A DNA stretch of 64,000 bases from the NCBI GenBank assembly GCA_040285855.1, contig JAUFOQ010000002.1:124001-188000 (forward strand), given 5' to 3'. This document shows positions 1,977-64,000 of the stretch, piece by piece; the stretch's first letter is position 1; each line of letters starts with the position of its first letter. The translations under genes were made by a program, and so were the position numbers. The DNA comes from Eukaryota sp. GEM-RC1. Lineage: Eukaryota. The notes beneath the pieces were generated by a model. The model made no database searches. It was not told where the DNA came from and saw only the letters and a list, made by a program, of their open reading frames with translations.

Positions 1977-1980
1977 AGGT

Positions 1981-2228
1981 TGTTACCACTAAGCTAATAG
2001 CGCTATTAGCTTAGTGGTAACAAAAGGTTTGCGGGTGCCCTTCGTCGGGTCTTTCTTACGCTACCAGCTTAGCAGTACCTCCAGGAAATAGCTCACCTCT
2101 GTGTGGTCCATGTTTTAGGACATACTATTACTTGTTCGACCTCACCCGGACTCGAACCTTCGACCTTCGAAGACCAGCAAACCTTTTGTTACCACTAAGC
2201 TAATAGCGCTATTAGTTTAGTGGTAACA
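1981..2228. mobile_element. 248-bp non-autonomous element with palindromic TG..CA termini, 52-bp TIRs, 4-bp TSD and tRNA-like A/B boxes
   Basis: TSD AGGT at 1977-1980 and 2229-2232. TIRs 1981-2032 and 2177-2228 (1 mismatch). 1981-2022 is a perfect 42-bp palindrome. Minus-strand TAGCTTAGTGG (2202-2192) and GGTTCGAGTCC (2158-2148). Confidence 0.85.
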
Positions 2229-2276
2229 AGGTCTGGATTTTTGTTTTTGTAACTTTACATCACTTACTTATATCGA

Positions 2277-3623
2277 ATGTATCCCGATTCTGTCCTTATC
2301 AGTTCTCACAGTTTGCCAACATGTCGAGAAACTGCTTCTCTCATGGCTGCTGTTAAGTCCAAGCGTGGAGCTTCTTTGTTTTCTGTAGTCACCAACCTGA
2401 CTAATACTGTTGTATGTTAGTCAATCTCAGCTAATATAAGGTAGGTGCTGGTGTTCTTACTCTACCACTTGCTTTTAGAAATGCTTCAGCTGGTCTCGCA
2501 ATAATTCTATTAGTTTACGTCTGTATATCTGCTTCGCTCTCCATGATCTTCCTAGCTTTCTGTTCTGCTCTTACTGGACACTATTCATACAAAAGAATCG
2601 CTCAAGAAGCTTATGGGCTCAAAGTTGGTGCTGTTTCGGAGATTGTAGTGAGCATAACTACTTGCGGAACTTGTACAATGTTTGTGGTCCTCTTAGGGGA
2701 TTTTTCTTCCTTCTCTAACAACTGAATTACTTCCACAATCTCTACCTTGGTTTTTCTTTAATAGAACATGTCTTTTGGTTGCAGTAGCTCTCCTTGTTCT
2801 CTATCCCCTCGCTTTATTACGCAAGATTGATGCCTTGAAGTTCTCATCCACTATCGCAATGACGTGCTTTCTTTATTTAGTTTTTGTAGTTACGTATAGA
2901 TTCATGACTAATACTTATCCAAAACCAGTTGATAATCATTTTGATTGGATTCGATTCTCGCATGATATTGCTTTGGCTATACCCTTAATGAGCGTATGTT
3001 TAATTGTCTTATAGATCTCAACTTAGGTGTCTTTTAATGGACATTACAACGTTCTAAACCTTTATAAGGAGCTGTCGAATCGTAGTATGAAGCGATTCAC
3101 AAAAGCTGTTGTTGCATCTTCAACGTTTTCTCTTTTGTTTTATACTTTAATAGGTTTTGTAGGTTATTATTGTTTTAGAGGAGATACTATGGGAAATATT
3201 GTGAATAATTATGCTCAGAATGATCTTCTAGCTATCATTGCTAGAGTTGGAGTGTCGATAACAGTGACGTTTAGTTTCCCAATGGCTTTCTTTGCCTTTA
3301 GGAAGAGTATGGAGAATAATATTTTCTCAAAGCCTTCCGATTCATTCAAAAGACAATGGTTCATGTCTACCGTTCTAGTCTCTGCATTGGTCTCTCTTGC
3401 TGTTCTTGAGGATCGTATAGAGAACGTTGTGAGATTGTCTGGGAGCTCAGGAGCGATGTTCGTTGTATTCATATTACCAGCGGTGTTTTACCTGAAACTT
3501 TCTAGAGTATTGGAGTTTACTTGGAAAATACGGTTGATGCGGTTCACAGCCTGGACCAACATTATAGCTGGTTTTGTGTTCATGATTTTTGGTATGAGGT
3601 ATGCACTGCAAGCATTTTGTTGA
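2277..3623 (+). CDS. Amino acid transporter (Aa_trans / AVT / SLC38-like)
   Basis: Spliced NLTNTV-VGAGVLTLPLAF motif and many TM helices. Introns at 2412-2440 and 2994-3026; one extra T in a T-run near 2703. Start is 2277 or 2343. Confidence 0.88.
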
Positions 3624-3819: not shown

Positions 3820-4492
3820 CAGTGATGTACAAAAATAGTAGCCGTAAATACGGTACCTTTGTAAGTTTGCCGTAAATTATTTCCGTATTTTTACAGTTTC
3901 CGTATTTTACGGCAAGTTTGAAACGAAGTGAGAATACGCGAAATACGGAAAAATATTTTAATAATTGAAACTACAAAAACTAAGAGCAAATACAGATCAA
4001 AACCGTGATCCATCACTAATCAGAATCGGTATGTTAATGTTCCCTGAATGACTTGCATGCAGAACCGTTTCAACAGTGTCCAGCAGTTTCTATGTAGAGA
4101 AGAAAAAGTAGAAAGTTTAAGGGTAAGCTTAAAAGTCTCCACTTCAAACGATGACTATGATCAACATAATACGGTTTTTCAAGTTGGCTTAGCAGGATTA
4201 TCACATTTGATTAATAAAAACAATAAGGTTGTACCAACTTCTAAGTATTTCAGCTCTTGTCATGTATCGGACCCAGTCATTTTTCTTCTTTTTAAGTACT
4301 AGGGCAACATAGAATGGCGCAGTTTTTACAGAACTGATCAAAACGAACAAGAATGCGGGGTATACAAAAGAGTATTTTATATTCTCACTACGGTAACATT
4401 TGCCGTAAATAATCTCCGTATTTTTACATTTACCGTATTTTACGGTAGTGTACGGCAAATAGTATACGGTACGCTATTTTTGTACATCACTG
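3820..4492. mobile_element. Non-autonomous hAT-type element (MITE)
   Basis: Perfect 19-bp TIR CAGTGATGTACAAAAATAG; 8-bp TSD ATATGTAG (3812-3819, 4493-4500); dense subterminal CCGTA/TACGG motifs. Confidence 0.92.
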
Positions 4493-5099
4493 ATATGTAG
4501 TTTCGATTGAAACAAACACAATTGTCATGACAACTGATAAGTTCTCCCACTACTTCCTTGAACTTTACTGTTGATTATAGATTGTATGTTTAACTTCCTC
4601 TATAATCCTCTGCTCTACAAACTCACTAATATCAGTCATTGTGTAAGAGGTAAAGTCAACACTACTAGTACTTACGTTACAACAAATCTGTCCATCAGGA
4701 ATCACAGGAATCTCTAGAATTATGCTGGCTAAAGAGGGTCGTATTATTAGTAATTGAATGCTACAAAAAAACAAATAGAGAATCGCTCTTTCATTATCGC
4801 AACCCCCTTATTATTTACAAAGCATTGATTGTATTGAGGGAAACAATACAATCATACCACCTTCTGTGGTTGTAATGAAGCCATGTTTGTTACTACTCTT
4901 CCTACTAAACATAAACATGATTGTTGACACCGATAGAAGTTTTGAAATTGACAGTGTTAGAAAAAATAGACTGGATTTGTTTTTCAGTTTTACCCCTACA
5001 TGTACTACAGTAGTTTATATATCCTGTAAAAAGCGGAAAATAATAAAGCTAATTGAAATACATGTCATTGTCTTTGTAAGTTGAGATGCCAGAAACACA

Positions 5100-6000
5100 A
5101 CTTTATTCGCTTTCCAAAAACGTAACCTTTCTACAAAAATATGAATTTGTAAAAAGAAACAAATTAAACTAAGACTAAATCCAAACGACGTCATCCCTAT
5201 CCGGTAAAAGATTACGTTTTTCTACATTAACTTTCACACCAAACTTGTACAGTTTCTCAATTATTCGAGAGAAATAGAAAGGAATATTCCTATAAATAGA
5301 AAACACTATACGGTTTTTCCATTCAGACATTCTAAACTTACGCTTCTTTTCTTTGCAAAGTTCTTCAAAATCCTTGAAAAACTAGCAGGACTAATTGATC
5401 CAAGAAGAGAAACAGCAAAGGGTGAAACACAAATTTGGAATACGATTTTCACTTCAGTTCTTCTACTTGAGAGCATACCTGAATAGTACAATCTTATTAT
5501 AATTTTTTTTGCATCAAATAGTCTCATGTTTTTAATTTATTTGTTTTTGTATTATAAATGTATAAGATCAAACAACTCATGTTTTGTATTTTTAGTATTT
5601 TATATACTAGTAAGTTGTGTACTGCAACTGAAAGACTGATATATTGTAGTGTCAATGTTGCTGTTAGTTTCAACATACAATAAGCAACACATATGTGTTC
5701 TCTAAATAACAATGGCAGAAACATTAAACGAATAAACAAATTTAATCTATTGTTTTAAGTAAGTACTTTTTGTATTTTTTGTATTGTATTAGATCAGGTT
5801 GTATGTTTCAGGTATGCTTGAGAGTCATACTTGGAATGCTTGAGTTTTTCAGCAGCTGTTAACAGATTAAGACAAGAATCTGATATTCTACTAACACAAA
5901 ATTTGTTACAAACATCTGCTGTGGTAAAATCCATTACTGATTGACTCGGATTTAAGCCACGGAATATGATGGTCCTCCACTTTTGATGTGAAAATTCAAA
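5100..6000 (-). mobile_element. Degenerate CRE-like non-LTR 3' fragments
   Basis: 5815-6000 (MDFTTADVCNK...AAEKLKHSKYDSQ) and 5100-5440 (PFAVSLLGSISPA) match the 635-1290 and 25834-26408 copies; unrelated sequence separates the two pieces. Confidence 0.75.
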
Positions 6001-24038: not shown

Positions 24039-24614
24039 TACTGACAAATTATTAATTTGGAATTCATTATTTAAAAGTAGAAGTTCGTTTTTGAAAAGTT
24101 TCCTGCAAATGTGTCTTTTTATGGTTTATCGACAATCAAACTATTTCTTTTCAATGACCGCCCGTGTTTCTCTTGTCATTAGTAGTAGTATAGTTTGATT
24201 AGACATTTGATTCTCTTTTCATTTAGCAGACTTTTAGACTTTCTTTCAAGAAAAGTATTTTCAGTTTCAATACATTTTTATAATTCAAATCTCAAGCATA
24301 ACAGCTCTTTCTGCAAGAAAGAGTTTAATTCACCAAGAAATTGATGTTTTATTATCTCTTTGCAGGTATTATAACAATAAGGTAGACCAGAATTTGCAGA
24401 TAGGAAATTTTAATTTTAAGGGTATTGAGTACTGGAGATTTAGGATTCCCGTGCACAGTACGTGTGTTGTCCGAGCACTAATTTACAGGTATAAAGAAAG
24501 GAAATTGATCACGTGTACATCTTTAATTTAAGTATTACGACTAATTTGGGTATCTTAAACAAACTGATCGACATACATTGCATTTTAACCTCTGATTTTC
24601 TTTTTCATTCAGAA

Positions 24615-26408
24615 TGAGGAAAATGCAATTTTAAACATTGATTTTAAAAATGCATTTAATTGTGTTTTAAGAACAACTATATCTGACGAACTTTCTGAAT
24701 TTTTGACTCAGTTGATTGAGTATTTTAATATTTTTTATGGTAAAGCGTCGAATTTAATTTTTGACAAGTTTGATATTAAATCAACTAGAGGCGTTAAGCA
24801 AGGTGATCCTTTTGGTCCTTTATTGTTTTGTCTCGCTCTGCAAAAATTATTTAAAATCTTACAATTAGATTTTCCAACTGTTAAAATTTGTGCTTATGCT
24901 GATGATTCTTCGCTGATCGCTCCAGATGACGTTCTCAAAAAGTGTTTTTCACGTTTCATTGAACTTTCTTTGAGTATTGGTTTGGCAATTAATTTTGATA
25001 AGTGTTTTCTTGTTGTTAAGTCTTCGAATGTTTCTAATCTTGGTTTTTGTAATATTCCTATCATCGATTATTCTACTCAATGTTTTCGTTTTCTTGTCAC
25101 ATTTTTGGGAAATTATGAGAAAATTCATTCAGAATTGGAGGGTTCACTAACTACCATTGAAGAAAAACTAAATCAAATATTATCTTTAGATGTGAGTAAA
25201 CCTGTTTCTTTTGCTATGCTTCAGGTTTGTTTTTCCGGGAAAATTAATCATTTTTTCCGTTCATTAGACTATTCCCTTACTGGAAACATTTGCCAAGAAA
25301 TTTAATTCTATTACATGTAGAACAAATTCTCTCTCTAACTTGGCTGAAATTGATGAGTCTAAGATTCATGTTCATGCTTTTTATTCATCTGAATTTGCAG
25401 GGGTAGGTTTCACCCATGCAAAAATCATTAGAAAATCTGCTCTTTTAGGAGGTGTTAAGAATTTTATGTTTGAATTTTTGAAACGGTTTCCCTTGGATGG
25501 AATCAATCTGTTGAATTCCAGTAATTGCCGTTGGATTCAATCTGCTAAAGATTTGGTATCACCCTTGGCTCCTGAACTGTGGAAATCTTTGTTCCATGCT
25601 CACTTAAAGGAGACTCCTTTAAAAGATATTTCATCTCTACCGTCTGCTGTATGTAAACTGCAAAATTAAATGACAAAGGAGTTTGAACTCTTGGACTTTG
25701 ATAATCGTATTAGCTTGGCTAAAACTAATAGTCCCGAGTTCGCTGCTTTTTTAATTGACCTTTGTAATAGTGGACCGTCTGGATTTATTTCTCAAATTCC
25801 TAAAGTGTACTGATTACATCTATCTGATGAAGCTTGGATGATCAATGTGCGTCTTCGTTTGGCTATTTGGCCTGCAAATTTATTAAAACTTGCTCTTGTG
25901 GAGCTATTGGTGTTTTTCGTCATTTAATTAATTCTCGTTATTCTATTCATCTACGTGCAGTAATTCATGATGGTGTACGTGATTCTTGTTATTCCATGTT
26001 TAAAGCACATGGTTTTCACACTAAAGTTGAACCAGTTTTGAATCATCTTTCAGAAAATGAATTTACTGATCAACAAAGAGGGGATCTCCATACTCCGTGG
26101 CTTAAATCGAGTCAATCATTAATGGATGTTACCACAGTAGATGTTTGTAACAAATCTTGTGTTAGTAGGATATTAGATTCTTCTTTTAATCCGTTAACAG
26201 CTGCTGAAAAGCTCAAACACTCCAAGTATGACTCTCAAGTAGAAGAATTAAAGAGAAACTCATACTCCAAATTTGTGTTTCAACCTTTTGCTGTTTCTCT
26301 TTTTGGATCTATTAGTCCTGCTGGCGATCAATTTTTCAAGGATTTCGAAGAACTGTGTAAAGAAAAGAAGCGAAAGTTTAGAATGGCTGAATGGAAAAAC
26401 CGTATAGT
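24615..26408 (+). mobile_element. 5'-truncated, inactivated CRE-like non-LTR retrotransposon (RT + REL endonuclease)
   Basis: IDFKNAFN, GVKQGDPFGPLLF, AYADD, then CSC..H..HDGVRD..RGD..DVTTVD; stops and frameshifts. Confidence 0.88.
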
Positions 26409-26439
26409 TGTGGGAGAAAATTTATGGAACAAAAACACA

Positions 26440-27570
26440 AAAATAAACACAAATACTAAAACTCAATATCATTAAAGCAACAATCATTGCCATTAAAACT
26501 CACATCAGCTTTTTCTTCATAAAAAACACTGAGAGCTAATAGAGCTTTTGAAATCATGATGGGAATTGTTTTAAATATTGTAAAAACAATACGATTCAAC
26601 CCAAATTTGAAACCGTATATTGTTATCCATACATCGGAATATGCCTTTCTATTTCTCTCGATTAATTGAGAAATTGTACATGTTTGGTGTGATCCAATAC
26701 ATATTTTGATTGAGCTTAGCAACATATTTGGAATACAAATCAATTTTATCCTTTTCTGCTGTTACTAGGTGGTTGAAACCTTTTGAAGTTAGGCTGCTAA
26801 CATGAATTTGAGCACATGGATCTAATGTTATAGCATCAAGAATAGTTTGACTGATATGAGAAAAAGCATTATTCGGCACCCAATAAGGTAACCTTCCTAC
26901 ATAACTATGAAATTGTAAAAACAAACAAATAATGCTAAAATTAAATCCAAACGACTTCATCACCACCCGGTAAAAGATTAATTTGTATCCTGGATACCTG
27001 TTTGGATACGTTTAAAGCTAACGGTTTTCATGGAAAAATTAAACCTTTACTTGCTAATCTTTCTGATCAGCCAAAAGATGATAGAAACTGTGATAATTTG
27101 ATTGGTCTTTGGTTATCTTGTCAGGAAATTATCATGAATTTCACAACTGTTGATCTTTGTAATTCAAGATCAATTTGCAAAAAAATTAATGATTTTTCTG
27201 TTCTTGAAGTGGCTGAATAATTAATTCAGTTAAACCAATTAACCAATTGAATGTTGACCGGTACAATTCTTTTGTGTGTCAACCGTTTGCGATGTCGATA
27301 TACAGTAATATTGGACCAGCTGCACAAGGTTTTTTAACTTCCTTTGGTAAATTGTGTTCTGAGTACTGTAAAGTTTTCAATCAAAATTTTTGGTTGAGTA
27401 GGTTAACGTTTGGGTTGTTTCGTTCAATGCACAGATATTTTAATTCAATTTTAGGTAAGTTGTTCGGTGATGGACAGAAGGATTATAGTTTAGATGCTTT
27501 AGTTAGTGTCTGTTAGTTATTAACTTCTGCAAATGCATTATTTTACTGATTGATCATAAATCCCGATTTT
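26440..27570. mobile_element. Patchwork of non-LTR 3' fragments from several subfamilies in both orientations
   Basis: 26456-26600(-) resembles 19660-19810. 26630-26690 and 26870-26980(-) resemble 1090-1290. 26985-27570(+) resembles 11385-11650. Confidence 0.75.
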
Positions 27571-29407: not shown

Positions 29408-30178
29408 CAGTGGTGTTAAATAAATAGAATACACCGTAAAAATGTCCGTAAATACGAAACGCCAACATCGGGAAAATTTCCGCACGTACGGAAAGAAAAC
29501 AATGTCCGGATCGTATATACAGAATGGTTGACTCCGTATTAATACTGTTGCCACTTTTAGTGGCGTGTCATTGGTTGTTGTTGGTCTGATACAATTGTTA
29601 GCAATGTATATTGGTAATATGGATATCTTCTTCTAGGATGATATCTATCATAATAAATTTACTTTACCCCAACTTCATGACTTCACCCGCTAAACCAACA
29701 GTAATTACTGTGGATTCCTCCACGGTGACTCCCCATACTATAGTACATATACCTCCTTCCATGGAGCAAACACATATACCTGAAGATTCCGTCTCTTCAG
29801 CCTATAAAGTTCATCCAATGGGTTCCAATCCCATACAAAGCCAGAGTCCCGCTCTCTCCGCTTTCCCTTTTGATCAAGGTTTGACGGATTGTATATAACC
29901 AATCCTAAAGACCCTAGGTTAGAAACTTTGAGACCTCCACCTCCATTCGTTGGAATCCTGGAACCGTCCTCCGCTCCTCAATCTGAAGATGAGAATCCAA
30001 CAACAGAATTCTCCATCCTTCTGAAAGAGAGCATGAGAACTCGTCCAAAGAAGAAGATTCAAGGACTTGCTTCAAAAAGAGATCCAAGGACAAAACACCT
30101 GAGCAGAGTTTTGGTCAGCCAGGTCCGTTACAACCACCTGTCCTCTCTTCCAAGCCTGGCTTAGGTTTCTCACTACCT

Positions 30179-31363
30179 TTGCCTAACATAGATCCTGTCC
30201 CAGAACTCCCACATTCTCCGGACATCTTGAGTCCCCCAACAACTCATGGTAGTTCTCCTTGTACGGATTATACCTTTCCAGTTACTGGGAACAACACAAG
30301 ATCTGTATTATCTACTGATATATATGGTTCTTTTATGGCAGTTGATAACCCCGACCTTACTGAAGCTAGAAGATTGGACATGCGTTCAAAATTCAATCCA
30401 GACCTTCGTTCTTCCGTGGTTGAAACAACTACGCCTAAAGACTCAGAAACCAGAGCCCCAGAATTGTTTCCCATATACAATCATGACGGACGCTTGGTAG
30501 GATACGCTCCTAGAATAATTCCTGGTTTTATACCAGCATCCTCTGTGGATACCTCTTGTAGAGTGCAAACTGCTCCTTTACACTTGTCCGATCTCCACGA
30601 GTCGACAATCAGTACCTCCTACAGTGCCCTCGAAAGCGCAGGAGTCCAACGCACTAATCTTGTCCTACGTCCTAACGAACCCGACAAAATCGACACAAGT
30701 TCTCAAGATTCTATTTTGTCATTTGTTCTCGATTTCACTGGCTTCTTCAAGAAACCACGTAGATTAGATGGCAGTTCCATCGCCCACTCTAAAGATTTTC
30801 TTTTAGGTTTCCCACATCATGAACTTGATCTAGTCCGGGAAGCCATGGGTGAAGTCGACGTTACCCGACTCCAAGAATTTGTTCCTCTTGTAACCTCGTA
30901 CGGTTGGAAGATCAGCGGAGTCTGGGACGGTGCCAACAACAGCACATTATGGATGGTTATTCTATTGAAAACCCAACATAGCAACATGATTGATGCTACC
31001 AATGCCATAAACCGAATAAACATGGATTGGTCTATTGCCAACGATGATTTTCGTTGGTCCAATTACCTAGAGAGGTTTCAGAAAGCTGCGTACAAATGCT
31101 CCTTCATTTGTGAAGACGTCACGAACCCCACTTTCGGCCATTCTATTCGTATCAAAGAATTGATGAAAATCTTCTTAATACACATGGGATCCGCTCAACT
31201 ATGGTTCACTTTCAAGTCCAAAATCGAAGAAGGAAAATATGAAAACTTTTCTCAATTTTTCAAAGATCTCCGACCTGCATACATCACGTGGTGTACCAGT
31301 ATTGGTTCTTCAATCGAGCTTAAGAATAAAGCTCGGTTAGGTGCCTCGGAAGGAATTGCCTAA
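30179..31363 (+). CDS. gag: Gag-like ORF (upstream part broken by frameshifts from about 29677)
   Basis: Position in the element; Pro/Ser-rich N-terminus. Confidence 0.65.
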   Translation: MPNIDPVPELPHSPDILSPPTTHGSSPCTDYTFPVTGNNTRSVLSTDIYGSFMAVDNPDLTEARRLDMRSKFNPDLRSSVVETTTPKDSETRAPELFPIYNHDGRLVGYAPRIIPGFIPASSVDTSCRVQTAPLHLSDLHESTISTSYSALESAGVQRTNLVLRPNEPDKIDTSSQDSILSFVLDFTGFFKKPRRLDGSSIAHSKDFLLGFPHHELDLVREAMGEVDVTRLQEFVPLVTSYGWKISGVWDGANNSTLWMVILLKTQHSNMIDATNAINRINMDWSIANDDFRWSNYLERFQKAAYKCSFICEDVTNPTFGHSIRIKELMKIFLIHMGSAQLWFTFKSKIEEGKYENFSQFFKDLRPAYITWCTSIGSSIELKNKARLGASEGIA

Positions 31364-34300
31364 GGAATTAAAAAACCTCTGGCTTTCCAAAACCAAGCAT
31401 ACCTCTATCCATCACCCAGCCAATCCGAGTGGTTCTAAACGAAGAAGTAGTGAGACTCACCACACCGGTCCCAATCCACATAAGAAGATGTCTCGTTCCA
31501 AGCCTATCACAACGAACACCGGTGGCACTCCCAAATGTGCTTACTGTGGAAGCACCAAACATGTGTTATCTGAATGCACCGATGACGCATGTACCCGCAG
31601 TAAACTCTCCAAAGAAGAAAGAGCTGCACGCCGTGAACAAGGTGATGTCCCAGAACGAAAACCTGTCACCAAACCAGCCAAACCTAGATCTTTCCATAGT
31701 TCAAATAAAAAATCTAGTTACTCCGAGCAACATAATACTCCTAGTATCAACAACCTTAGCCAGTTGCAATCTATTTCAAACCCTCTGGGAAATATCAAAA
31801 CTAATCCCCAGATAAATTCCCTATCTGCTACACACGATCCCACTCCTGTGCCCAGTCCCGTGAAGACTCCTTCATCAAACGATTTTATCCACATATTCTT
31901 TGAGATCAATGGTATCAGTCTCGAAGGCATGTTCGATAGTGGTGCAGCCCTCTCTGTTATCACAAAAGATCTAGCAGATCAATGTTCAATGTTAGTCACA
32001 GACGACTTCATTCACTTCAAATCAGCCAATAATTCTGTTAGCCAAACCCTTGGTCGTGCCTCGGGTACTTTATCATTCCGTCTCGGTAGCATAGCTAACT
32101 TAGTTCATATCCAATACAGTCTCCCAATTATCCCTGGATGCAACAAAATGTTAATTGGTCTTGACCTTTTGGAGCGATTAGGGCTACGAACAGACACTGG
32201 ATTAGTCATCCAGTTAGATAAAGAACATAAAGTCCTACTGACAGACGATAGCGAGTTCGATCATAAACTCGTGTCAATTAGTTCACTTTCCAGTACCAAC
32301 CAACGTCCATTTGATGATTGGTGCGAATACGTTTCAACAACAGGATGTATGATCAACCTCGATTGCACACAACGAACTAAAACCATGCTTAACCTTTTTA
32401 TGGAATTTAAGGAAGTATTCGCAGAAGTTCCTCACCGTGATGGCATAGACTGTGCCCCAATGAGTATCCCATTCCACAACGAATCAGTCATAGTGAGAAA
32501 ACCTCCTCGAAGACTCAACCCAGTCAAACAAAGAATCGCTGAAGAGATCTTCGACGAACTCGTCCGTGCAGACTTTGCTGAATATACTGAACCCGTGTTC
32601 AGCTCCCCAATTGTCCTAGTCATTTACCCAGATCACCGCAAACCACGCCTGACTGGAGACTTCAGTGGCTCTGGCGGAGTCAACGACAACTCCATCCCGG
32701 TAGAAGCTCAGCTACCCAGAATATCGGAAGTGATTGAATTTCTTTCACAAGCAAAATTCATTGCCACCTTTGATTTACCAAAAGCCTTCTGGCAATTGAA
32801 AGTCACTGAAAAGGACCGCATCAAGACAACCTTAAGCATTCACGGGAAGTCTATAAAATTCAAGAGAGCCTGCTTTGGCCTCAAGAACGTTCCAGCCATT
32901 TTCCAAAACATCATGGTGGAAATATTTCAAGCCGAAGGGATATTCATCTACATAGATGATATCATTGTCATTGGCAACACGTTTGACCAATTCATTGAGA
33001 GAATACATTTCGTCCTAACCCAAAGTCATTCTCGTAGAGTCAACATTGGCCTACGTAAGACCAAAGTGGTTACCGACCAACATGAAATTCAAGTCTTGGG
33101 AACGAAATTCATGAACAGAAAACGATCAATTGCCCAATCAAGGATTGATGCCCTCATCAACCTTCCTAAACCAACCAACGTCAAGGAAGTGAGGAGCCTG
33201 ATCGGTTCCATCAACTTCATTCGTGACTGGTTACCAGGCATATCTGACCTGATACAACCAATCATCAACTTGATTAAGCAAGACTCCAAGTCAAAAGGCC
33301 CGCCCAAATCCATCAAATGGAATGACTCACATGATGCCTTACTTAACCAAATCAAACACCTGATCGCTAGCAATATCCCTCTGGCGCTGCCAGATCCCAA
33401 TAAACACATCCTAATAAGTTGTGATGCTTCAGATCTTGCAGTTGGAGGCACAGTTTGGATGGAAATTCCACCTAACTCCCCTACTGGTACCCCGCTTAGG
33501 GACAGAAAGGTTTTGCCTCTCTCCTTCTATAGCAAAATACTCTCTCCTTCACAACAACGATGGTCTACAATGCAGAAAGAACTGTATGCCATCCTCTTGA
33601 TTTTAACTGAATCAACCTTATCAAACTACTTATTGACTCGCCAAATTACCGTCTTTACAGACCACAAGAACTTGGCATACCTGATATCAGCACCCGAGAA
33701 GAACCGAATCGTCAAACGATGGATTCCCGTTCTATCTGAATTCCACATCGATGTAGTTCACACACCCGGTGAAGACAATCACTGGGCAGACATGTTATCC
33801 AGATTCATACCTAAAAGAGAACCTCATGACGAAGTCGACCAAGTGAACGCTCTGCGAGATGAAAGTTCAATACAGTTATTGTCCGGATTTTCACTCGACT
33901 TCACGGAAGATGACATGGAGTTCACTCAATACGATACCAATTCCATACTTAACCTGACACCGGTCGTCTTAGATGACCTTCCGATGTTCAGTTCATGGAT
34001 TTCCAAAATCCGACTGGAACAATTGACCGCCATAGAAAACAATGACCCATTACTATCTAACGTCTCAATTGACCCCAATAGTCAACTATACCTTTCCAAT
34101 AAAGGTAAAATAATCATACCAGAAGCTCTTAGGAATACTATCCTTTACAACCTTCACGGGCTAACACACGCCGGACACCCCAGTGCCAAAGACAGTCTCG
34201 ACCGTCTAGCCAAATCTGATTTCGTATGGCCTGGAATGCACAAAGACATGAAACGACATGTTGCCACGTGCCCCAGCTGTCAAAAAACAGCTCCTGTACC

Positions 34301-35486
34301 TAGAAAACAACTGCCATCCACCGGCAGCCTATGGGCAGACAAACCATTCGCTAAGATGCATGTAGACACAATTGGACCTCTACCTGCCGACAACTTGGAA
34401 AACAAATACCTTGTAGTGTTCATTGACGCTTTCACAAGATACTCCATACTGGTACCCTTGATTGACCTAAACGCTAATGAAACAGCTAATGCCTTAATCT
34501 GGAACGTTTGTTCCATCTTCGGCATTCCCTATAAGATTCACTCCGATAATGACCCTGAGTTCGCTAACGCCACTTTTATCGCCACATGTAATCTTCTAGA
34601 TATCGAAGTTTCAAAATCAATACCCATGCTCTCCCAAAGCAACGGTCTAGTCGAAAGACGACATCGTGACATCTTGCAATCCTTACGCAAGATACTAGTA
34701 GACTTTAACGATTTCGACAACTGGAGTTCTCACATTCCTCTTGTCCAATTAATAGTCAATACTAATCGTAGTAGAGTTACCGGCTTTACTCCCTTCGAAC
34801 TTATGTTTGGAACAAACACCGACCCTCGCGGTGACCCTAGTCGCTTATTAACATTTCTTAAATCTTCACAAACCTCAGAATTAGCCTTCCTCACGGATCT
34901 GAATTTGAAACTAAACAGACTGCAAACAAAAAGAGAAAAAGCAGAGTCATCTCAGCTTTCAATCCAACCTAAGACTTCCAGGTCGAAGAACCCCTTCCGC
35001 CTTGGAGACCTAGCCCTTAGAAGCACTAAGAAAGATAAACTCCATGGACGATACGAAGGACCCTTCAAGGTAATTGGTATTCCGTCAGATTCCTCACTGA
35101 CACTCAAGAACCTCATAACAGGTCATGAGTCCCGTTCCTCAGTAGCACTCTGCAAACCATATCACTCTGACTTCGGTCCAGATAATGAGTTCCACAAGTT
35201 TGTTGCTGCCAACGATTCCGAAGAATTGATTGTTGAGAAAATTCTCGATCAATCAATTTCCAATTCCCAAGTCGTGTGTTCAGTTTTATGGCATGATGGA
35301 AGTACTACCCAGGAACCATTAGCCAATGTTAAGAACACCAAGGCCTACTCCACTTTTATTAAAGACAACCCCAATCTCCGGGTCCAAAACAAGTCTTATA
35401 AATCCAATATATCGATTGCATCCCCTTTATCTCGTCGCACCCGATCCAGATCGAACTCGACTTCTAAGAAGAAAAGGCAGTGTTAG
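31341..35486 (+). CDS. pol: Gag-Pol polyprotein: CCHC, protease, RT, RNase H, integrase, GPY/F, chromodomain
   Basis: CAYCGSTKHVLSEC, FDSGA, YIDD, CDASD, HHCC, HVD..SDN..GLVER, YEGPFKV, VEKILD..VLW..EPLANV. Confidence 0.95.
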   Translation: MPRKELPKELKNLWLSKTKHTSIHHPANPSGSKRRSSETHHTGPNPHKKMSRSKPITTNTGGTPKCAYCGSTKHVLSECTDDACTRSKLSKEERAARREQGDVPERKPVTKPAKPRSFHSSNKKSSYSEQHNTPSINNLSQLQSISNPLGNIKTNPQINSLSATHDPTPVPSPVKTPSSNDFIHIFFEINGISLEGMFDSGAALSVITKDLADQCSMLVTDDFIHFKSANNSVSQTLGRASGTLSFRLGSIANLVHIQYSLPIIPGCNKMLIGLDLLERLGLRTDTGLVIQLDKEHKVLLTDDSEFDHKLVSISSLSSTNQRPFDDWCEYVSTTGCMINLDCTQRTKTMLNLFMEFKEVFAEVPHRDGIDCAPMSIPFHNESVIVRKPPRRLNPVKQRIAEEIFDELVRADFAEYTEPVFSSPIVLVIYPDHRKPRLTGDFSGSGGVNDNSIPVEAQLPRISEVIEFLSQAKFIATFDLPKAFWQLKVTEKDRIKTTLSIHGKSIKFKRACFGLKNVPAIFQNIMVEIFQAEGIFIYIDDIIVIGNTFDQFIERIHFVLTQSHSRRVNIGLRKTKVVTDQHEIQVLGTKFMNRKRSIAQSRIDALINLPKPTNVKEVRSLIGSINFIRDWLPGISDLIQPIINLIKQDSKSKGPPKSIKWNDSHDALLNQIKHLIASNIPLALPDPNKHILISCDASDLAVGGTVWMEIPPNSPTGTPLRDRKVLPLSFYSKILSPSQQRWSTMQKELYAILLILTESTLSNYLLTRQITVFTDHKNLAYLISAPEKNRIVKRWIPVLSEFHIDVVHTPGEDNHWADMLSRFIPKREPHDEVDQVNALRDESSIQLLSGFSLDFTEDDMEFTQYDTNSILNLTPVVLDDLPMFSSWISKIRLEQLTAIENNDPLLSNVSIDPNSQLYLSNKGKIIIPEALRNTILYNLHGLTHAGHPSAKDSLDRLAKSDFVWPGMHKDMKRHVATCPSCQKTAPVPRKQLPSTGSLWADKPFAKMHVDTIGPLPADNLENKYLVVFIDAFTRYSILVPLIDLNANETANALIWNVCSIFGIPYKIHSDNDPEFANATFIATCNLLDIEVSKSIPMLSQSNGLVERRHRDILQSLRKILVDFNDFDNWSSHIPLVQLIVNTNRSRVTGFTPFELMFGTNTDPRGDPSRLLTFLKSSQTSELAFLTDLNLKLNRLQTKREKAESSQLSIQPKTSRSKNPFRLGDLALRSTKKDKLHGRYEGPFKVIGIPSDSSLTLKNLITGHESRSSVALCKPYHSDFGPDNEFHKFVAANDSEELIVEKILDQSISNSQVVCSVLWHDGSTTQEPLANVKNTKAYSTFIKDNPNLRVQNKSYKSNISIASPLSRRTRSRSNSTSKKKRQC

Positions 35487-36440
35487 CAATGTATATTAGT
35501 AATATGGATATCTTCTTCTAGGATGATATCTATCATAATAAATTTACTTTACCCCAACTTCATGACTTCACCCGCTAAACCAACACAATTTAATTATTAA
35601 TCTGGAACAAGAGTTTTTGGAACTGCAACAAACAACTGTCTCACGTTCAACCTATCCTTTAATCCGCCAACTTCGAGCGATGCCAAGTGATTGTTTTCAA
35701 AGGCAAAATAACCATATGGTCCACCGCATATGATTGCCACCATTGTTTGAAGTGGACGTATCTTGAACGCCAAATGTTTTTTCTGTACAATAGAAGTTAA
35801 TAGTCTGCTAAAACAGTGCAAAAGACTTTGAAAAAGGGTTGACCAGAAGATTGTTATGACACACATTCAGATTGAGGATTAGTTCTTTCCGTTAGACTGT
35901 CATTTTACAAGGTTTCAAAGAAAATCTTTTATCTCGTAAAGATACATAAAGTCTAAAGACGTAAACAAAATTAACAATACTATTCCATGACATGGCCTTG
36001 AACCCTAAAGAGTTTCTTCAAAATTCCATCGAAATACTGGAAACATTGAACGAAATACAGAAAAACGCGACGATTTCTCCAAAAAAATAATGTTAAACTT
36101 CTTGCCAAATTCACAACACAATTGATTCAAAGATGACAAAAACGTTTGAGTTGCAATAAGAAGTTTTTTAATCTTAAGACATATTCTTCCGTATTTTGCA
36201 TATTTATACTCAATTGTTGTCGAATCTGTAAATACGGAAACACTTACGATATGATATTTTACACACGGAAAGTGTGAAATGGTGGCGTATTCTGAGTTAA
36301 TATTTTTCAACATCACTGCTTCAAAGCATCCATATAATTAGAACACTTTCGCTGTTCAGTCTTTTCAAGGTGACCATTAGAATCATTCAAAATGGAGTCC
36401 TTGTAGACTTTTGCCAACGATAGATGTACAATGTATTAAT

Positions 36441-37372: not shown

Positions 37373-37424
37373 TAGGTGTCCTAATACAATAATCAATATA
37401 CAGTTGCTTGTATTAGGACACCTA
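37373..37424. repeat. 17-bp perfect inverted repeat with 18-nt spacer (possible minimal MITE)
   Basis: taggtgtcctaatacaa ... ttgtattaggacaccta. Confidence 0.7.
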
Positions 37425-57215: not shown

Positions 57216-57429
57216 ATTTGATGATGATAGAGAGTGTTGCGAAATTTGGTTATCAAAGATCTACATGTACTAGTACCTACTTACAGTGTTCTTACACAGA
57301 ACTAAGACACAGAGCAACTGATCGGTTGCAACGAGATATCATGATAAGGCTCTGTCAAAGTCGTATTCTTCAACAATAATCATTTACTTATCCATTTTAG
57401 AAGAGTCGAAGTACAGTACGTGTACTGGT

Positions 57430-59722
57430 CACTTTTGCTATAATCTTGACAGAACTGACTATAATCTTGACAACTTCTTTTCACTTTCCCTCAAATATCT
57501 CTCTTTATTATTCATAAATATGAGCTTAAATCAAAACATCGTCTTAAATGAGGAGGACCCTACAATCAATCCAACAACACCAGTTCCAAATAATTTGATG
57601 TCTTTTGAATCCTATGAAGATGCTGTTAACTCTCTGCAAAAGTGGGCCGGTGATAAAGGTTTCTCTCTCCGTACCGATGGTGGTAATGAAGGCCGTGGAC
57701 GTGTTTATCTTTTATGCTCCTGTGCTTCTGTCCATAGACCTGGTCGTGTTAATGAGAACAATGACATTGCTCGACGTCGCTCAAAGACAAGAGTTAGGCA
57801 ATGTGCTTTTAAGCTGTACCTTAAACTTCAACGACGAACTTTGGAAGGTTGAATCAAGAAGTATAGTACACAAACATATGCTAGCAGCTGATAAAACTTC
57901 TACTTCTGAGTTGTATCACTCAATCAATTGGAAAGACTCATGTGTGCCCCGCTATCCACCACTCCGAAAAAAAATCCTGTTGCAACTCAGGAAAGAAGCA
58001 AGAACCAATAATGAAGCAGTTTTATTAACAGCCAAAGATATTTCAAATATCCGCTATAAAACGAAATTGGAATCACAGGAGGGCCGAGGGCCAATTGACA
58101 GTTTGATTGAAAAAACGCGGACGGGTACATCTTTCGAGTTAAGTCTGATGCCGAAAACCGACTTGAAGCCCTGTTTATTGTAAACCGGGAGGTACTGCCG
58201 ATTGCCAGAAGATTTCGGTATGTGTTCTGTCTTGACAGTACTTATAAGACAAATACATTTGGTATGCCAATGTTTCATATGGTTGGTTTTACGTGTTTAA
58301 ATTCATCGTTCAGTGCTGCCTGTGTCTTTATGGCGAAAGAAACTGAAGAATACTATCTTTGGACCTTGGAACAATTTAAAGATGTAATTAACATTAATCC
58401 AGGAGTTTTTCTTACAGATAAAGAAAAGGCATTGAATAATGCTGTCAGGCAAGTGTTTCCTACATCCGGTCACGTTTTATGCTTGTTCCATATCGTTCAA
58501 AATTTAATCCAAATTAAGAACGCTAAAGGAATTTCTGATCCAGCATGGAAAATATTTATGGAACATTTTTACTCCGTAATTCAAAGTGAAGCATTAGAAG
58601 AATTTTGTTGGAATTTGGACGTGATGACAGGCAAATATGAAAATGACCGAGAATGTGGTGATGCCTTCATCTATTTAATTAACAATTGGTTCGATATGAA
58701 GGAAAGTTTCTGTTATTACAATATTGATCAATTCACTCACTTTGAAACTTACACGAACAATCGAGCCGAGTCCGCCCACAATGCACTAAAATCCGGAGAT
58801 CGAATGTACAAAAGAGACTTGGAGAGTGCTATGGAAAATGTTATGGCTACTATGGAGCATCAAGTAATCGACTTAAGAAGAAACATTGATGTTGATAAGC
58901 AGAGAGTCGACCGAGAACTGATGAACACCCCTTTATTTGTGAACGTAATTCGACACGTGTCATCTTTTGCTTTGTTGAAGGTTTTACAAATTATTGCTTT
59001 TAGCCAAACGAATCATGTGGATTCAGTATATTCAGGTAGAACTGAGAGAATAACTGGAATTCCATGTATTCACAGCAGTAAAAGAACACAAAGACTTTCC
59101 AAAGATATGTTTCATCGACAGTGGTGGTTAGATGAGGAAGCAGAACCGAGTTTGACTATAATCTTGACAAATGACTAAAATCTTGACAAAAATGACTATG
59201 CTCTTGACAAAAATGACTAGAATCTTGACAGCTTCTCATTCTTGCTAGAATCTTGACAGAACTGACTAGATTCTTGACAAGTTGCTTTCTGATCCATTTT
59301 AGTGATATCATCATTTCTTCGTCACTGCCTCACTGTCTCCCTCTTTATGTTCTGGACCTGGGAGTTTCTGCTTTCGTTATCACATATACTTTAGTAGTTC
59401 AAATTCTACATTCTACAGTTCACTATTGCTCTAATGCTCACAATCACAATCTTTCTTGAATTTCTTACATCTTTGACAATGACTTCTGCTATCATGTCCT
59501 TCCTGGCGACACACTCTACATTTCCTTGCGGTTTTCTTCTTTTGAGTTCTTATCACCCTACCATTCTCCTCATGAACTTTTGGACCTTCGTATCGATGGG
59601 CAGACCTTGCTAAACCCACATTGGCAGCCTCTTCTAACCGTACCTTGTCTGCTGCTGACTCAGTAGACCGCCATTGATTGAACAGTTCTTCAACAGGATT
59701 AGAAATTTGACCTGGTTCTGCT
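57430..59722 (+). mobile_element. Rearranged Mutator/MULE element, tandem unit 1 (2293 bp)
   Basis: FAR1-like N-terminus; LDSTYKTN, FLTDKE, LCLFH, TNNRAESAH (DDE); ends built of about 21-bp TGACTATAATCTTGACA repeats; 3' part inverted. Confidence 0.92.
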
Positions 59723-62015
59723 CACTTTTGCTATAATCTTGACAGAACTGACTATAATCTTGACAACTTCTTTTCACTTTCCCTCAAATATCTCTCTTTA
59801 TTATTCATAAATATGAGCTTAAATCAAAACATCGTCTTAAATGAGGAGGACCCTACAATCAATATAACAACACCAGTTCCAAATAATTTGATGTCTTTTG
59901 AATCCTATGAAGATGCTGTTAACTCTCTGCAAAAGTGGGCCGGTGATAAAGGTTTCTCTCTCCGTACCGATGGTGGTAATGAAGGCCGTGGACGTGTTTA
60001 TCTTTTATGCTTTTGTGCTTCTGTCCATAGACCTGGTCGTGTTAATGAGAACAATGACATTGTTCGACGTCGCTCAAAGACAAGAGTTAGGCAATGTGCT
60101 TTTAAGCTGTACCTTAAACTTCAACGACGAACTTTGGAAGGTTGAATCAAGAAGTATAGTACACAACCATATGCTAGCAGCTGATAAAACTTCTACTTCT
60201 GAGTTGTATCACTCAATCAATTGGAAAGACTCATGTGTGCCCCGCTATCCACCACTCCGAAAAAAATCCTGTTGCAACTCAGGAAAGAAGCAAGAACCAA
60301 TAATGAAGCAGTTTTATTAACAGCCAAAGATATTTCAAATATCCGCTATAAAACGAAATTGGAATCACAGGAGGGCCGAGGGCCAATTGACAGTTTGATT
60401 GAAAAAAACGCGGACGGGTACATCTTTCGAGTTAAGTCTGATGCCGAAAACCGACTTGAAGCCCTGTTTATTGTAAACCGGGAGGTACTGCCGATTGCCA
60501 GAAGATTTCGGTGTGTGTTCTGTCTTGACAGTACTTATAAGACAAATACATTTGGTATGCCAATGTTTCATATGGTTGGTTTTACGTGTTTAAATTCATC
60601 GTTCAGTGCTGCCTGTGTCTTTATGGCGAAAGAAACTGAAGAATACTACCTTTGGACCTTGGAACAATTTAAAGATGTAATTAACATTAATCCAGGAGTT
60701 TTTCTTACAGATAAAGAAAAGGCATTGAATAATGCTGTCAGGCAAGTGTTTCCTACATCCGGTCACGTTTTATGCTTGTTCCATATCGTTCAAAATTTAA
60801 TCCAAATTAAGAACGCTAAAGGAATTTCTGATCCAGCATGGAAAATATTTATGGAACATTTTTACTCCGTAATTCAAAGTGAAGCATTAGAAGAATTTTG
60901 TTGGAATTTGGACGTGATGACAGGCAAATATGAAAATGACCGAGAATGTGGTGATGCCTTCATCTATTTAATTAACAATTGGTTCGATATGAAGGAAAGT
61001 TTCTGTTATTACAATATTGATCAATTCACTCACTTTGAAACTTACACGAACAATCGAGCCGAGTCCGCCCACAATGCACTAAAATCCGGAGATCGAATGT
61101 ACAAAAGAGACTTGGAGAGTGCTATGGAAAATGTTATGGCTACTATGGAGCATCAAGTAATCGACTTAAGAAGAAACATTGATGTTGATAAGCAGAGAGT
61201 CGACCGAGAACTGATGAACACCCCTTTATTTGTGAACGTAATTCGACACGTGTCATCTTTTGCTTTGTTGAAGGTTTTACAAATTATTGCTTTTAGCCAA
61301 ACGAATCATGTGGATTCAGTATATTCAGGTAGAACTGAGAGAATAACTGGAATTCCATGTATTCACAGCAGTAAAAGAACACAAAGACTTTCCAAAGATA
61401 TGTTTCATCGACAGTGGTGGTTAGATGAGGAAGCAGAACCGAGTTTGACTATAATCTTGACAAATGACTAAAATCTTGACAAAAATGACTATGCTCTTGA
61501 CAAAAATGACTAGAATCTTGACAGCTTCTCATTCTTGCTAGAATCTTGACAGAACTGACTAGATTCTTGACAAGTTGCTTTCTGATCCATTTTAGTGATA
61601 TCATCATTTCTTCGTCACTGCCTCACTGTCTCCCTCTTTATGTTCTGGACCTGGGAGTTTCTGCTTTCGTTATCACATATACTTTAGTAGTTCAAATTCT
61701 ACATTCTACAGTTCACTATTGCTCTAATGCTCACAATCACAATCTTTCTTGAATTTCTTACATCTTTGACAATGACTTCTGCTATCATGTCCTTCCTGGC
61801 GACACACTCTACATTTCCTTGCGGTTTTCTTCTTTTGAGTTCTTATCACCCTACCATTCTCCTCATGAACTTTTGGACCTTCGTATCGATGGGCAGACCT
61901 TGCTAAACCCACATTGGCAGCCTCTTCTAACCGTACCTTGTCTGCTGCTGACTCAGTAGACCGCCATTGATTGAACAGTTCTTCAACAGGATTAGAAATT
62001 TGACCTGGTTCTGCT
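59723..62015 (+). mobile_element. Rearranged MULE, tandem unit 2
   Basis: Repeat of unit 1 at +2293. Confidence 0.92.
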
Positions 62016-64000
62016 CACTTTTGCTATAATCTTGACAGAACTGACTATAATCTTGACAACTTCTTTTCACTTTCCCTCAAATATCTCTCTTTATTATTCA
62101 TAAATATGAGCTTAAATCAAAACATCGTCTTAAATGAGGAGGACCCTACAATCAATATAACAACACCAGTTCCAAATAATTTGATGTCTTTTGAATCCTA
62201 TGAAGATGCTGTTAACTCTCTGCAAAAGTGGGCCGGTGATAAAGGTTTCTCTCTCCGTACCGATGGTGGTAATGAAGGCCGTGGACGTGTTTATCTTTTA
62301 TGCTTTTGTGCTTCTGTCCATAGACCTGGTCGTGTTAATGAGAACAATGACATTGTTCGACGTCGCTCAAAGACAAGAGTTAGGCAATGTGCTTTTAAGC
62401 TGTACCTTAAACTTCAACGACGAACTTTGGAAGGTTGAATCAAGAAGTATAGTACACAACCATATGCTAGCAGCTGATAAAACTTCTACTTCTGAGTTGT
62501 ATCACTCAATCAATTGGAAAGACTCATGTGTGCCCCGCTATCCACCACTCCGAAAAAAATCCTGTTGCAACTCAGGAAAGAAGCAAGAACCAATAATGAA
62601 GCAGTTTTATTAACAGCCAAAGATATTTCAAATATCCGCTATAAAACGAAATTGGAATCACAGGAGGGCCAAGGGCCAATTGACAGTTTGATTGAAAAAA
62701 CGCGGACGGGTACATCTTTCGAGTTAAGTCTGATGCCGAAAACCGACTTGAAGCCCTGTTTATTGTAAACCGGGAGGTACTGCCGATTGCCAGAAGATTT
62801 CGGTATGTGTTCTGTCTTGACAGTACTTATAAGACAAATACATTTGGTATGCCAATGTTTCATATGGTTGGTTTTACGTGTTTAAATTCATCGTTCAGTG
62901 CTGCCTGTGTCTTTATGGCGAAAGAAACTGAAGAATACTATCTTTGGACCTTGGAACAATTTAAAGATGTAATTAACATTAATCCAGGAGTTTTTCTTAC
63001 AGATAAAGAAAAGGCATTGAATAATGCTGTCAGGCAAGTGTTTCCTACATCCGGTCACGTTTTATGCTTGTTCCATATCGTTCAAAATTTAATCCAAATT
63101 AAGAACGCTAAAGGAATTTCTGATCCAGCATGGAAAATATTTATGGAACATTTTTACTCCGTAATTCAAAGTGAAGCATTCGAAGAATTTTGTTGGAATT
63201 TGGACGTGATGACAGGCAAATATGAAAATGACCGAGAATGTGGTGATGCCTTCATCTATTTAATTAACAATTGGTTCGATATGAAGGAAAGTTTCTGTTA
63301 TTACAATATTGATCAATTCACTCACTTTGAAACTTACACGAACAATCGAGCCGAGTCCGCCCACAATGCACTAAAATCCGGAGATCGAATGTACAAAAGA
63401 GACTTGGAGAGTGCTATGGAAAATGTTATGGCTACTATGGAGCATCAAGTAATCGACTTAAGAAGAAACATTGATGTTGATAAGCAGAGAGTCGACCGAG
63501 AACTGATGAACACCCCTTTATTTGTGAACGTAATTCGACACGTGTCATCTTTTGCTTTGTTGAAGGTTTTACAAATTATTGCTTTTAGCCAAACGAATCA
63601 TGTGGATTCAGTATATTCAGGTAGAACTGAGAGAATAACTGGAATTCCATGTATTCACAGCAGTAAAAGAACACAAAGACTTTCCAAAGATATGTTTCAT
63701 CGACAGTGGTGGTTAGATGAGGAAGCAGAACCGAGTTTGACTATAATCTTGACAAAAATGACTAAAATCTTGACAAAAATGACTATGCTCTTGACAAAAA
63801 TGACTAGAATCTTGACAGCTTCTCATTCTTGCTAGAATCTTGACAGAACTGACTAGATTCTTGACAAGTTGCTTTCTGATCCATTTTAGTGATATCATCA
63901 TTTCTTCGTCACTGCCTCACTGTCTCCCTCTTTATGTTCTGGACCTGGGAGTTTCTGCTTTCGTTATCACATATACTTTAGTAGTTCAAATTCTACATTC
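62016..64000 (+). mobile_element. Rearranged MULE, tandem unit 3 (truncated by window end)
   Basis: Repeat of unit 2 at +2293. Confidence 0.92.

Follow-up and report, generated by a model that had tools for sequence, protein, structure and literature searches.

According to the available portions of PMC10886601, TRIMp3/Helenus elements are short and non-coding, possess two terminal repeats and tRNA-derived boxes, are flanked by 4-5-bp duplications, leave solo repeats and depend on Gypsy or Copia elements. Both boxes of a Helenus element reside in the LTR, the element carries a purine tract as well as a tRNA primer site, and the same portions report that no self-complementary priming was found (Kojima 2024, PMC10886601). 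The strings 'palindrom', 'inverted' and 'hairpin' are absent from the text of that paper, and its supplement has 41 occurrences of the forward A box and none of four strings for the reversed one, although line breaks could hide some (PMC10886601). Cassandra TRIMs, as far as these portions describe them, are 5S-derived, have ends that set Pol III start and stop, and produce an RNA with an 18-nt terminal redundancy (PMC10886601). Tf1/Tj1 elements use no tRNA primer, and their primer site pairs with their own RNA; the Tf1 primer is cleaved off the 5' part of its Pol II mRNA, and the purine tract is kept (available portions of PMC4600332). biv-TRIM/GalEa elements lack a canonical primer site and carry short inverted repeats in the inner domain; the terminal repeats of biv-TRIM are ordinary, its internal hairpins measure 9-10 bp, and the available portions of PMC6934838 mention no Pol III promoter.

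Here we analyse a 248-bp insertion, at positions 1981-2228 between two AGGT copies, in a 64-kb stretch of eukaryotic DNA (the window). Like a TRIM, it is shorter than 1 kb and non-coding, with two direct repeats, TG..CA ends and a duplication in the 4-6-bp range. In contrast to Helenus, only its A box lies within the terminal repeat, the B box being internal and single-copy, and it has neither a tRNA-3'-end primer site nor a polypurine tract before the 3' LTR. The element works like TRIMp3/Helenus but departs from it in these defining features, and it is not filed as Helenus. As in Cassandra, its ends are predicted to set Pol III start and stop, but its predicted RNA lacks terminal redundancy and its repeats are palindromic. 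As in Tf1/Tj1, the element would use no tRNA primer; however, the predicted primer is a Pol III 3' end, and the segment at the primer-site position (Y) pairs with this 3' end and not with the RNA 5' end (X). Palindromic termini set it apart from biv-TRIM. A terminal palindrome with a short inner inverted extension is also the arrangement of parvovirus (AAV-type) ITRs, but parvoviruses replicate as DNA with a nicking protein, whereas integrase-type duplications and a Pol III promoter mark the element. In the article listings and abstract openings searched, terminal repeats that are palindromic and carry A boxes are described nowhere; entries under other labels may exist, for instance in Repbase or Dfam, in subscription journals or among bioRxiv supplements.

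Anatomy of the element and its host window

The two terminal repeats are 98% alike (Table 1). The left one holds two A boxes reading outward, and the right one has a single mismatch, at 2216 in its outward-facing arm; elsewhere in the window the next-longest gapless palindrome is 18 bp. Beyond the palindromes, the inverted match continues perfectly for 10 bp and for 14 bp with one mismatch, yielding an inner inverted repeat with arms Y and Y'. The AGGT duplication is exactly 4 bp. On the minus strand, the GG of the B box follows the A box at 2202 after 44 nt, and the T of the A box (T8) lies 46 nt from T54, compared with 47 in the tRNA-Ile of the window. Dinucleotide shuffling produced an A and B pair at tRNA spacing 0 times in 20,000 trials, or 16 times in 20,000 when the ends were fixed; the head of the element was called a tRNA by neither ARAGORN nor Rfam. 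The layout on the B-box strand is X'X-Y-B box-body-Y'-X'X. A preliminary description of this DNA had already claimed the two 42-bp TG..CA palindromes, the 10-bp extension, the 4-bp duplication and the tRNA-like spacing of the boxes, all of which held up; the T4 run and the internal complement in Table 1 are additions to it.

Table 1. Positions of the element's features, its target site and a candidate helper within the 64-kb window (X and X', palindrome arms; Y and Y', arms of the inner inverted repeat)
Feature	Position	Strand	Remark
Target-site duplication, left copy	1977..1980	.	AGGT
3' terminal repeat of predicted RNA strand	1981..2022	.	42-bp palindrome X'X, perfect and gapless, TG..CA
T4 run at junction of internal region and repeat	2022..2025	-	Putative Pol III terminator, would form the 3' end of the primer
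Y', 3' arm of inner inverted repeat	2023..2036	-	Predicted self-primer
Internal complement of the first 18 nt of the RNA	2060..2077	-	18 pairs including 4 G-U
Pol III B box	2148..2158	-	Outside terminal repeat
Y, 5' arm of inner inverted repeat	2173..2186	-	Primer-binding-site position, no TGG
5' terminal repeat	2187..2228	.	42-bp palindrome, TG..CA, no loop
Pol III A box	2192..2202	-	Partner of the B box
Axis of 5' palindrome	2207/2208		Predicted RNA start at axis or just before
Target-site duplication, right copy	2229..2232	.	AGGT
Gypsy LTR retrotransposon	29596..35585	+	Candidate helper (putative role only)

Neither blastn nor model R1 detected a second copy of the element in the window. 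The insertion had also been thought to interrupt an RT relic, and this claim did not survive: just a four-residue DD-type motif reads across the site, and no match below E 0.5 came from Gypsy or Copia profiles built on fetched proteins, or from the non-LTR RT of the window as query. The element is located about 110 bp ahead of an amino-acid transporter frame (window 2229-2343), and an exon-intron junction may have been the AGGT target (GT at 2231, AG near 2290).

The Gypsy element of the window proved to have the TGTTA..AACA ends and 4-bp duplication (CAAT) ascribed to it earlier. Its LTRs (29596-29700 and 35481-35585) are 105 bp long and 99% alike, and protease, RT, RNase H and integrase are all encoded in one frame. 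The best 26 matches to its integrase region come from three unclassified eukaryote strains, with the top match at 97%. Such strains are described as skoliomonad metamonads in the available portions of 10.1101/2023.05.03.539051 and PMC11603281, and on the strength of these matches the host is taken to belong to that lineage. This Gypsy is a plausible helper of the element, with which it shares just 4-5 terminal bases. It appears young and its LTRs are very short; a purine tract is clearly present, a TGG primer site is not, and the C-terminus is chromodomain-like by eye; its primer-site region pairs poorly with its LTR, providing no sign of Tf1-type priming.

Further features of the window include a tRNA-Ile followed by T5, with an imperfect 52-bp inverted repeat about 330 bp upstream (37373-37424); an hAT-like MITE of about 670 bp (3820-4490) that has terminal inverted repeats and is flanked by an 8-bp duplication (ATATGTAG); and tandem 2,293-bp units, more than 99% alike and each with a MULE transposase frame (57422-64000). 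Non-LTR retrotransposon fragments are dispersed at 602-1290, 5099-5998 and 24589-26979 (RT at 24589-25302), and we take their C-terminal region to resemble the restriction-like endonucleases of CRE-type elements.

Relatives of unrelated sequence in metagenome contigs

The exact ends of the element had 0 matches in metagenome contigs and 0 in viral contigs. A pattern consisting of two head-to-head A boxes, with nothing else required, was found at 25 loci in prokaryote genomes and at least 116 in metagenome contigs, and at 0 loci in viral contigs; a second viral scan returned 28 loci, none with an upstream A box or a palindrome longer than 16 bp. A gapless near-perfect centre was present in 43 among the at least 116 metagenome loci listed and in 6 of the 25 prokaryote loci. 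Symmetric integrase-like ends were called in 31 among the at least 116 and in 1 of the 25 by a loose filter that lets in some false ends (e.g. L071 and L095). The 73 listed metagenome loci without a gapless centre were set aside as chance matches, terminator-like sequences or looped SINE/tRNA pairs, with L090, L108 and one L047 repeat kept from the gap-centred matches after reading; SINE or tRNA fragments in a looped head-to-head arrangement, lacking TG..CA ends, make up many of the at least 116 loci. The family head was absent by pattern from the 25 prokaryote loci, and absent by model R1 from the 6 gapless ones. Five of the 25 (L119, L129, L130, L132 and L141, four of them titled Parachlamydiaceae) contain a short gapless palindrome that is likely a REP-like repeat, no B box being seen.

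The layout of the window element recurs, in unrelated sequence, in family F1, L075 and L031, partly in L090, and in solo palindromes, the last having been predicted in the preliminary description. F1 comprises at least 26 loci, several of which are one site in different assemblies; its ends are identical across about 23 external flanks (24 distinct flanks in all), and there is no A tail. Complete elements of F1 (L017, L047, L048) and L075 span 306-395 bp. Their palindromes measure 72 bp, and each has a single internal B box, an inverted repeat inside the palindromes and TTT ahead of the far repeat. L031 has one truncated repeat and ends in TA..TA instead of TG..CA, and only the 5' end of L090 is visible. 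Outside the A and B boxes the sequences of the families differ, including the arms and Y.

Several spatial relations are preserved among them. The palindrome axis precedes the A box by 7 nt in 5 of 6 elements, as the tRNA start does in the tRNA-Ile of the window, and by 5 nt in the window element; overall the axis lies 5-7 nt ahead of the A box, at the place of tRNA +1. The sequence of Y varies by family and Y' tracks it (over 14, 20, 11 and 31 nt in the window element, F1, L075 and L031). T4 or T5 stands at the 3' junction between Y' and the repeat in all 4 families showing that end. Inside the element, T4 is absent from the B-box strand in 5 of 5 elements and present on the opposite strand in 3 of 5; the background, 239 of 780 window stretches of equal length without T4, is rough because these stretches are richer in AT than the elements. 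In none of five elements do the first 6 nt of either strand include the TGG of a tRNA-3'-end primer site, and none has a polypurine tract, the purine fraction of the last 12 nt being 0.25-0.5 in both orientations.

When the RNA from axis to T4 was folded, the pairing probability between its 3' end and Y was 1.0 in L047, L048 and L075, and 0.48 in the window element, where X in the lowest-energy fold pairs with the internal complement, in competition with Y:Y'. Equally stable internal complements arose in 0, 4 and 6 of 1000 shuffles for the window element, L047 and L107; the values for L017, L075, L031 and L090 (332, 382, 633 and 276 of 1000) were not significant, and with the first 20 nt only, significance was confined to the window element. 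We can only guess that this complement shields or releases X.

Exact 4- or 5-bp duplications flank 11 of the 15 insertions with both flanks visible. They measure 4 bp in the window element, L084 (uninformative, being palindromic), L101 and L105, and 5 bp in L017, L075, L107, L051, L060, L081 and L073. Duplications are absent in L047, L048 and L091, and L092, outside the 11, has one of 4 bp only if its end is shifted by one base (3 bp otherwise). The 4 bp reported for the window element stand, but not as a rule for the class, given the 5 bp of seven metagenome insertions. Solo repeats with duplications are seen in L051, L060, L073 and L081. The L060 solo, a copy of F1, interrupts a diatom-type Copia RT, and its removal together with 5 nt restores a frame of 320 codons, compared with 198 and 202 codons when 4 or 6 nt are removed instead; the restored RT matches an intact homologue, and the named homologues are from diatoms. 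For L073, an empty site is present on the same contig. The duplications, the restored frame and this empty site indicate that the ends are true insertion ends. As judged from sequence, the layout is present in at least two distant eukaryotic lineages.

A half-repeat of exactly 36 nt, which would end near the tRNA anticodon position, is found in four families with unrelated arms (L022, L073, L075, L090). L107 (284-799) is a head-to-head dimer with two different arms and a central half-repeat starting from the axis, with one 5-bp duplication around the whole. In a GC-rich host, L084, L092, L101, L105, L030 and L045 are 64-102-bp TGAGG..CCTCA palindromes containing a tRNA-like 5' half, with 4-bp duplications; seen as solos only, they are candidate members of the class.

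A proposed self-priming route and its alternatives

These features support the earlier view of a non-autonomous element, likely transcribed by Pol III and bearing integrase-type ends. We consider it probable, with moderate confidence, that it uses the RT and integrase of an LTR retrotransposon and that the 3' end of its RNA serves as its own primer. The preliminary description had raised self-priming by fold-back of the terminal palindrome; self-priming is retained here, in the form of a T4-ended 3' end annealed to the inner repeat, since fold-back of the terminal palindrome explains neither this repeat nor the T4.

The route that we infer would run as follows: 1) Pol III would begin transcription on the axis of the 5' palindrome, or slightly ahead of it, and stop at the T4, yielding X-Y-body-Y'-UUU(U); 2) the RNA 3' end would pair with Y at the primer-site position, and RT would copy X into X', the axis position being fixed because RT would run off the RNA 5' end; 3) X' would be extended to X'X, with either itself or the X' of a co-packaged molecule as template; 4) synthesis would then pass through the body, and the same events would rebuild X'X at the far end; and 5) integrase would insert the TG..CA ends, with a duplication whose length would be set by the helper (4 bp as in the window Gypsy, 5 bp in the diatom-associated family). 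The short X'X product could also prime the second strand, so that a palindromic end would act as both strong-stop DNAs and be used in both strand transfers; as X'X is its own complement, the same product could serve for this purpose, which would make a polypurine tract unneeded. The mirroring of X', with the rebuilding at the far end, and the priming of the second strand are the least constrained steps of the route.

In F1, seven distinct repeat variants are mirrored in both arms, and the differences among 13 distinct repeats comprise 15 mirrored versus 27 unmirrored. L075, L081, L107, L108 and L030 contain additional or fused half-repeats whose ends fall no more than 2 nt from the axis. G-U mismatches number 8 on the RNA strand versus 2 on the other, with 6 further mismatches of neither kind, under an extension rule that favoured G-U. 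Mirrored variants, axis-ending half-repeats and strand-biased G-U pairs are consistent with the proposed route but not decisive; solos, mirrored variants and axis breaks can also come from DNA hairpin repair or recombination.

An unlikely but still serious alternative is a Pol III-transcribed TRIM whose transcript would extend across the far palindrome, with a terminal hairpin or an unrecognised host RNA fragment as primer, and with Y/Y' and the T4 arising as by-products. TG..CA ends, solos and 4-5-bp duplications are all TRIM-like, and a T4 may be a leaky Pol III stop, as the window's own tRNA-Ile ends in T5. TRIMs without a recognisable primer site also exist, as biv-TRIM illustrates in the available portions of PMC6934838, and fungal Helenus is primed by a tRNA anticodon loop according to those of PMC10886601. 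Nevertheless, Y formed a weak duplex with the single host tRNA examined for such anticodon-loop priming, and this reading leaves unexplained why Y' tracks Y, why T4 marks the junction and why the purine tract is absent.

The self-priming route must also be weighed against DNA transposition. Ends that are true inverted repeats (52-92 bp) could belong to a MITE, Ginger-like or mobilised by another TG..CA DDE transposase, that captured a tRNA head. Ginger-type elements have TG..CA ends and 4-5-bp duplications, and the element shares both in combination with inverted termini; any direct repeat can yield solos, and the 102-bp TGAGG palindromes of L084, L092, L101 and L105, known as solos only, could themselves be MITEs. 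We regard this reading as improbable for the element: unrelated families keep both boxes, an axis at tRNA +1 and T4 avoidance on the B-box strand only, none of which a DNA-only route needs, and a scan of 27 window ORFs contained no Ginger-type gene.

A tRNA SINE (SINE2), inserted by target priming with a non-LTR RT and with ends folded back at insertion, would account for the head with A and B boxes, and non-LTR RT fragments are at hand in the window, but we judge it very improbable in view of the fixed 4- or 5-bp duplications, TG..CA ends, terminal repeats and the constant F1 termini, where a SINE would show an A-rich or repeat tail, variable duplications and no terminal repeats. A fold-back artefact of assembly or amplification at a tRNA-like sequence may lie behind many of the looped loci of the scan, and L047, L048 and the additional half-repeats may stem from short reads assembled across repeats, yet target duplications, a restored frame, an empty site on the same contig and the recurrence of the layout in independent data make it scarcely credible for the element.

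Implications for LTR-type reverse transcription

Priming by a folded-back RNA tail was not found in the literature searched, and the self-priming route is likely new. More tentatively, and with somewhat less confidence than doubt, we propose that the element may represent a class of eukaryotic retro-parasites that has gone undescribed although it is widespread, with members in metamonads, diatoms and further lineages. Such a class would build its LTR anew in each cycle through a mirrored copy of the 5' end, and a tRNA or SINE could by this route become an integrase substrate directly.

In the textbook account, LTR-type reverse transcription requires terminal redundancy, a polypurine tract and a primer that is either a tRNA or a cleaved RNA. 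An element of some 250 bases without all three, yet with integrase-type ends, would show a minimal alternative; if the proposed route is true, a single palindromic product would stand in for the tRNA primer, the R region and also the polypurine tract. This bears on how SINE-like RNAs may switch to LTR machinery. Such copies can easily be taken for MITEs, microRNA hairpins or tRNA pseudogenes, and neighbouring genes may be affected by their hairpins and outward A boxes.
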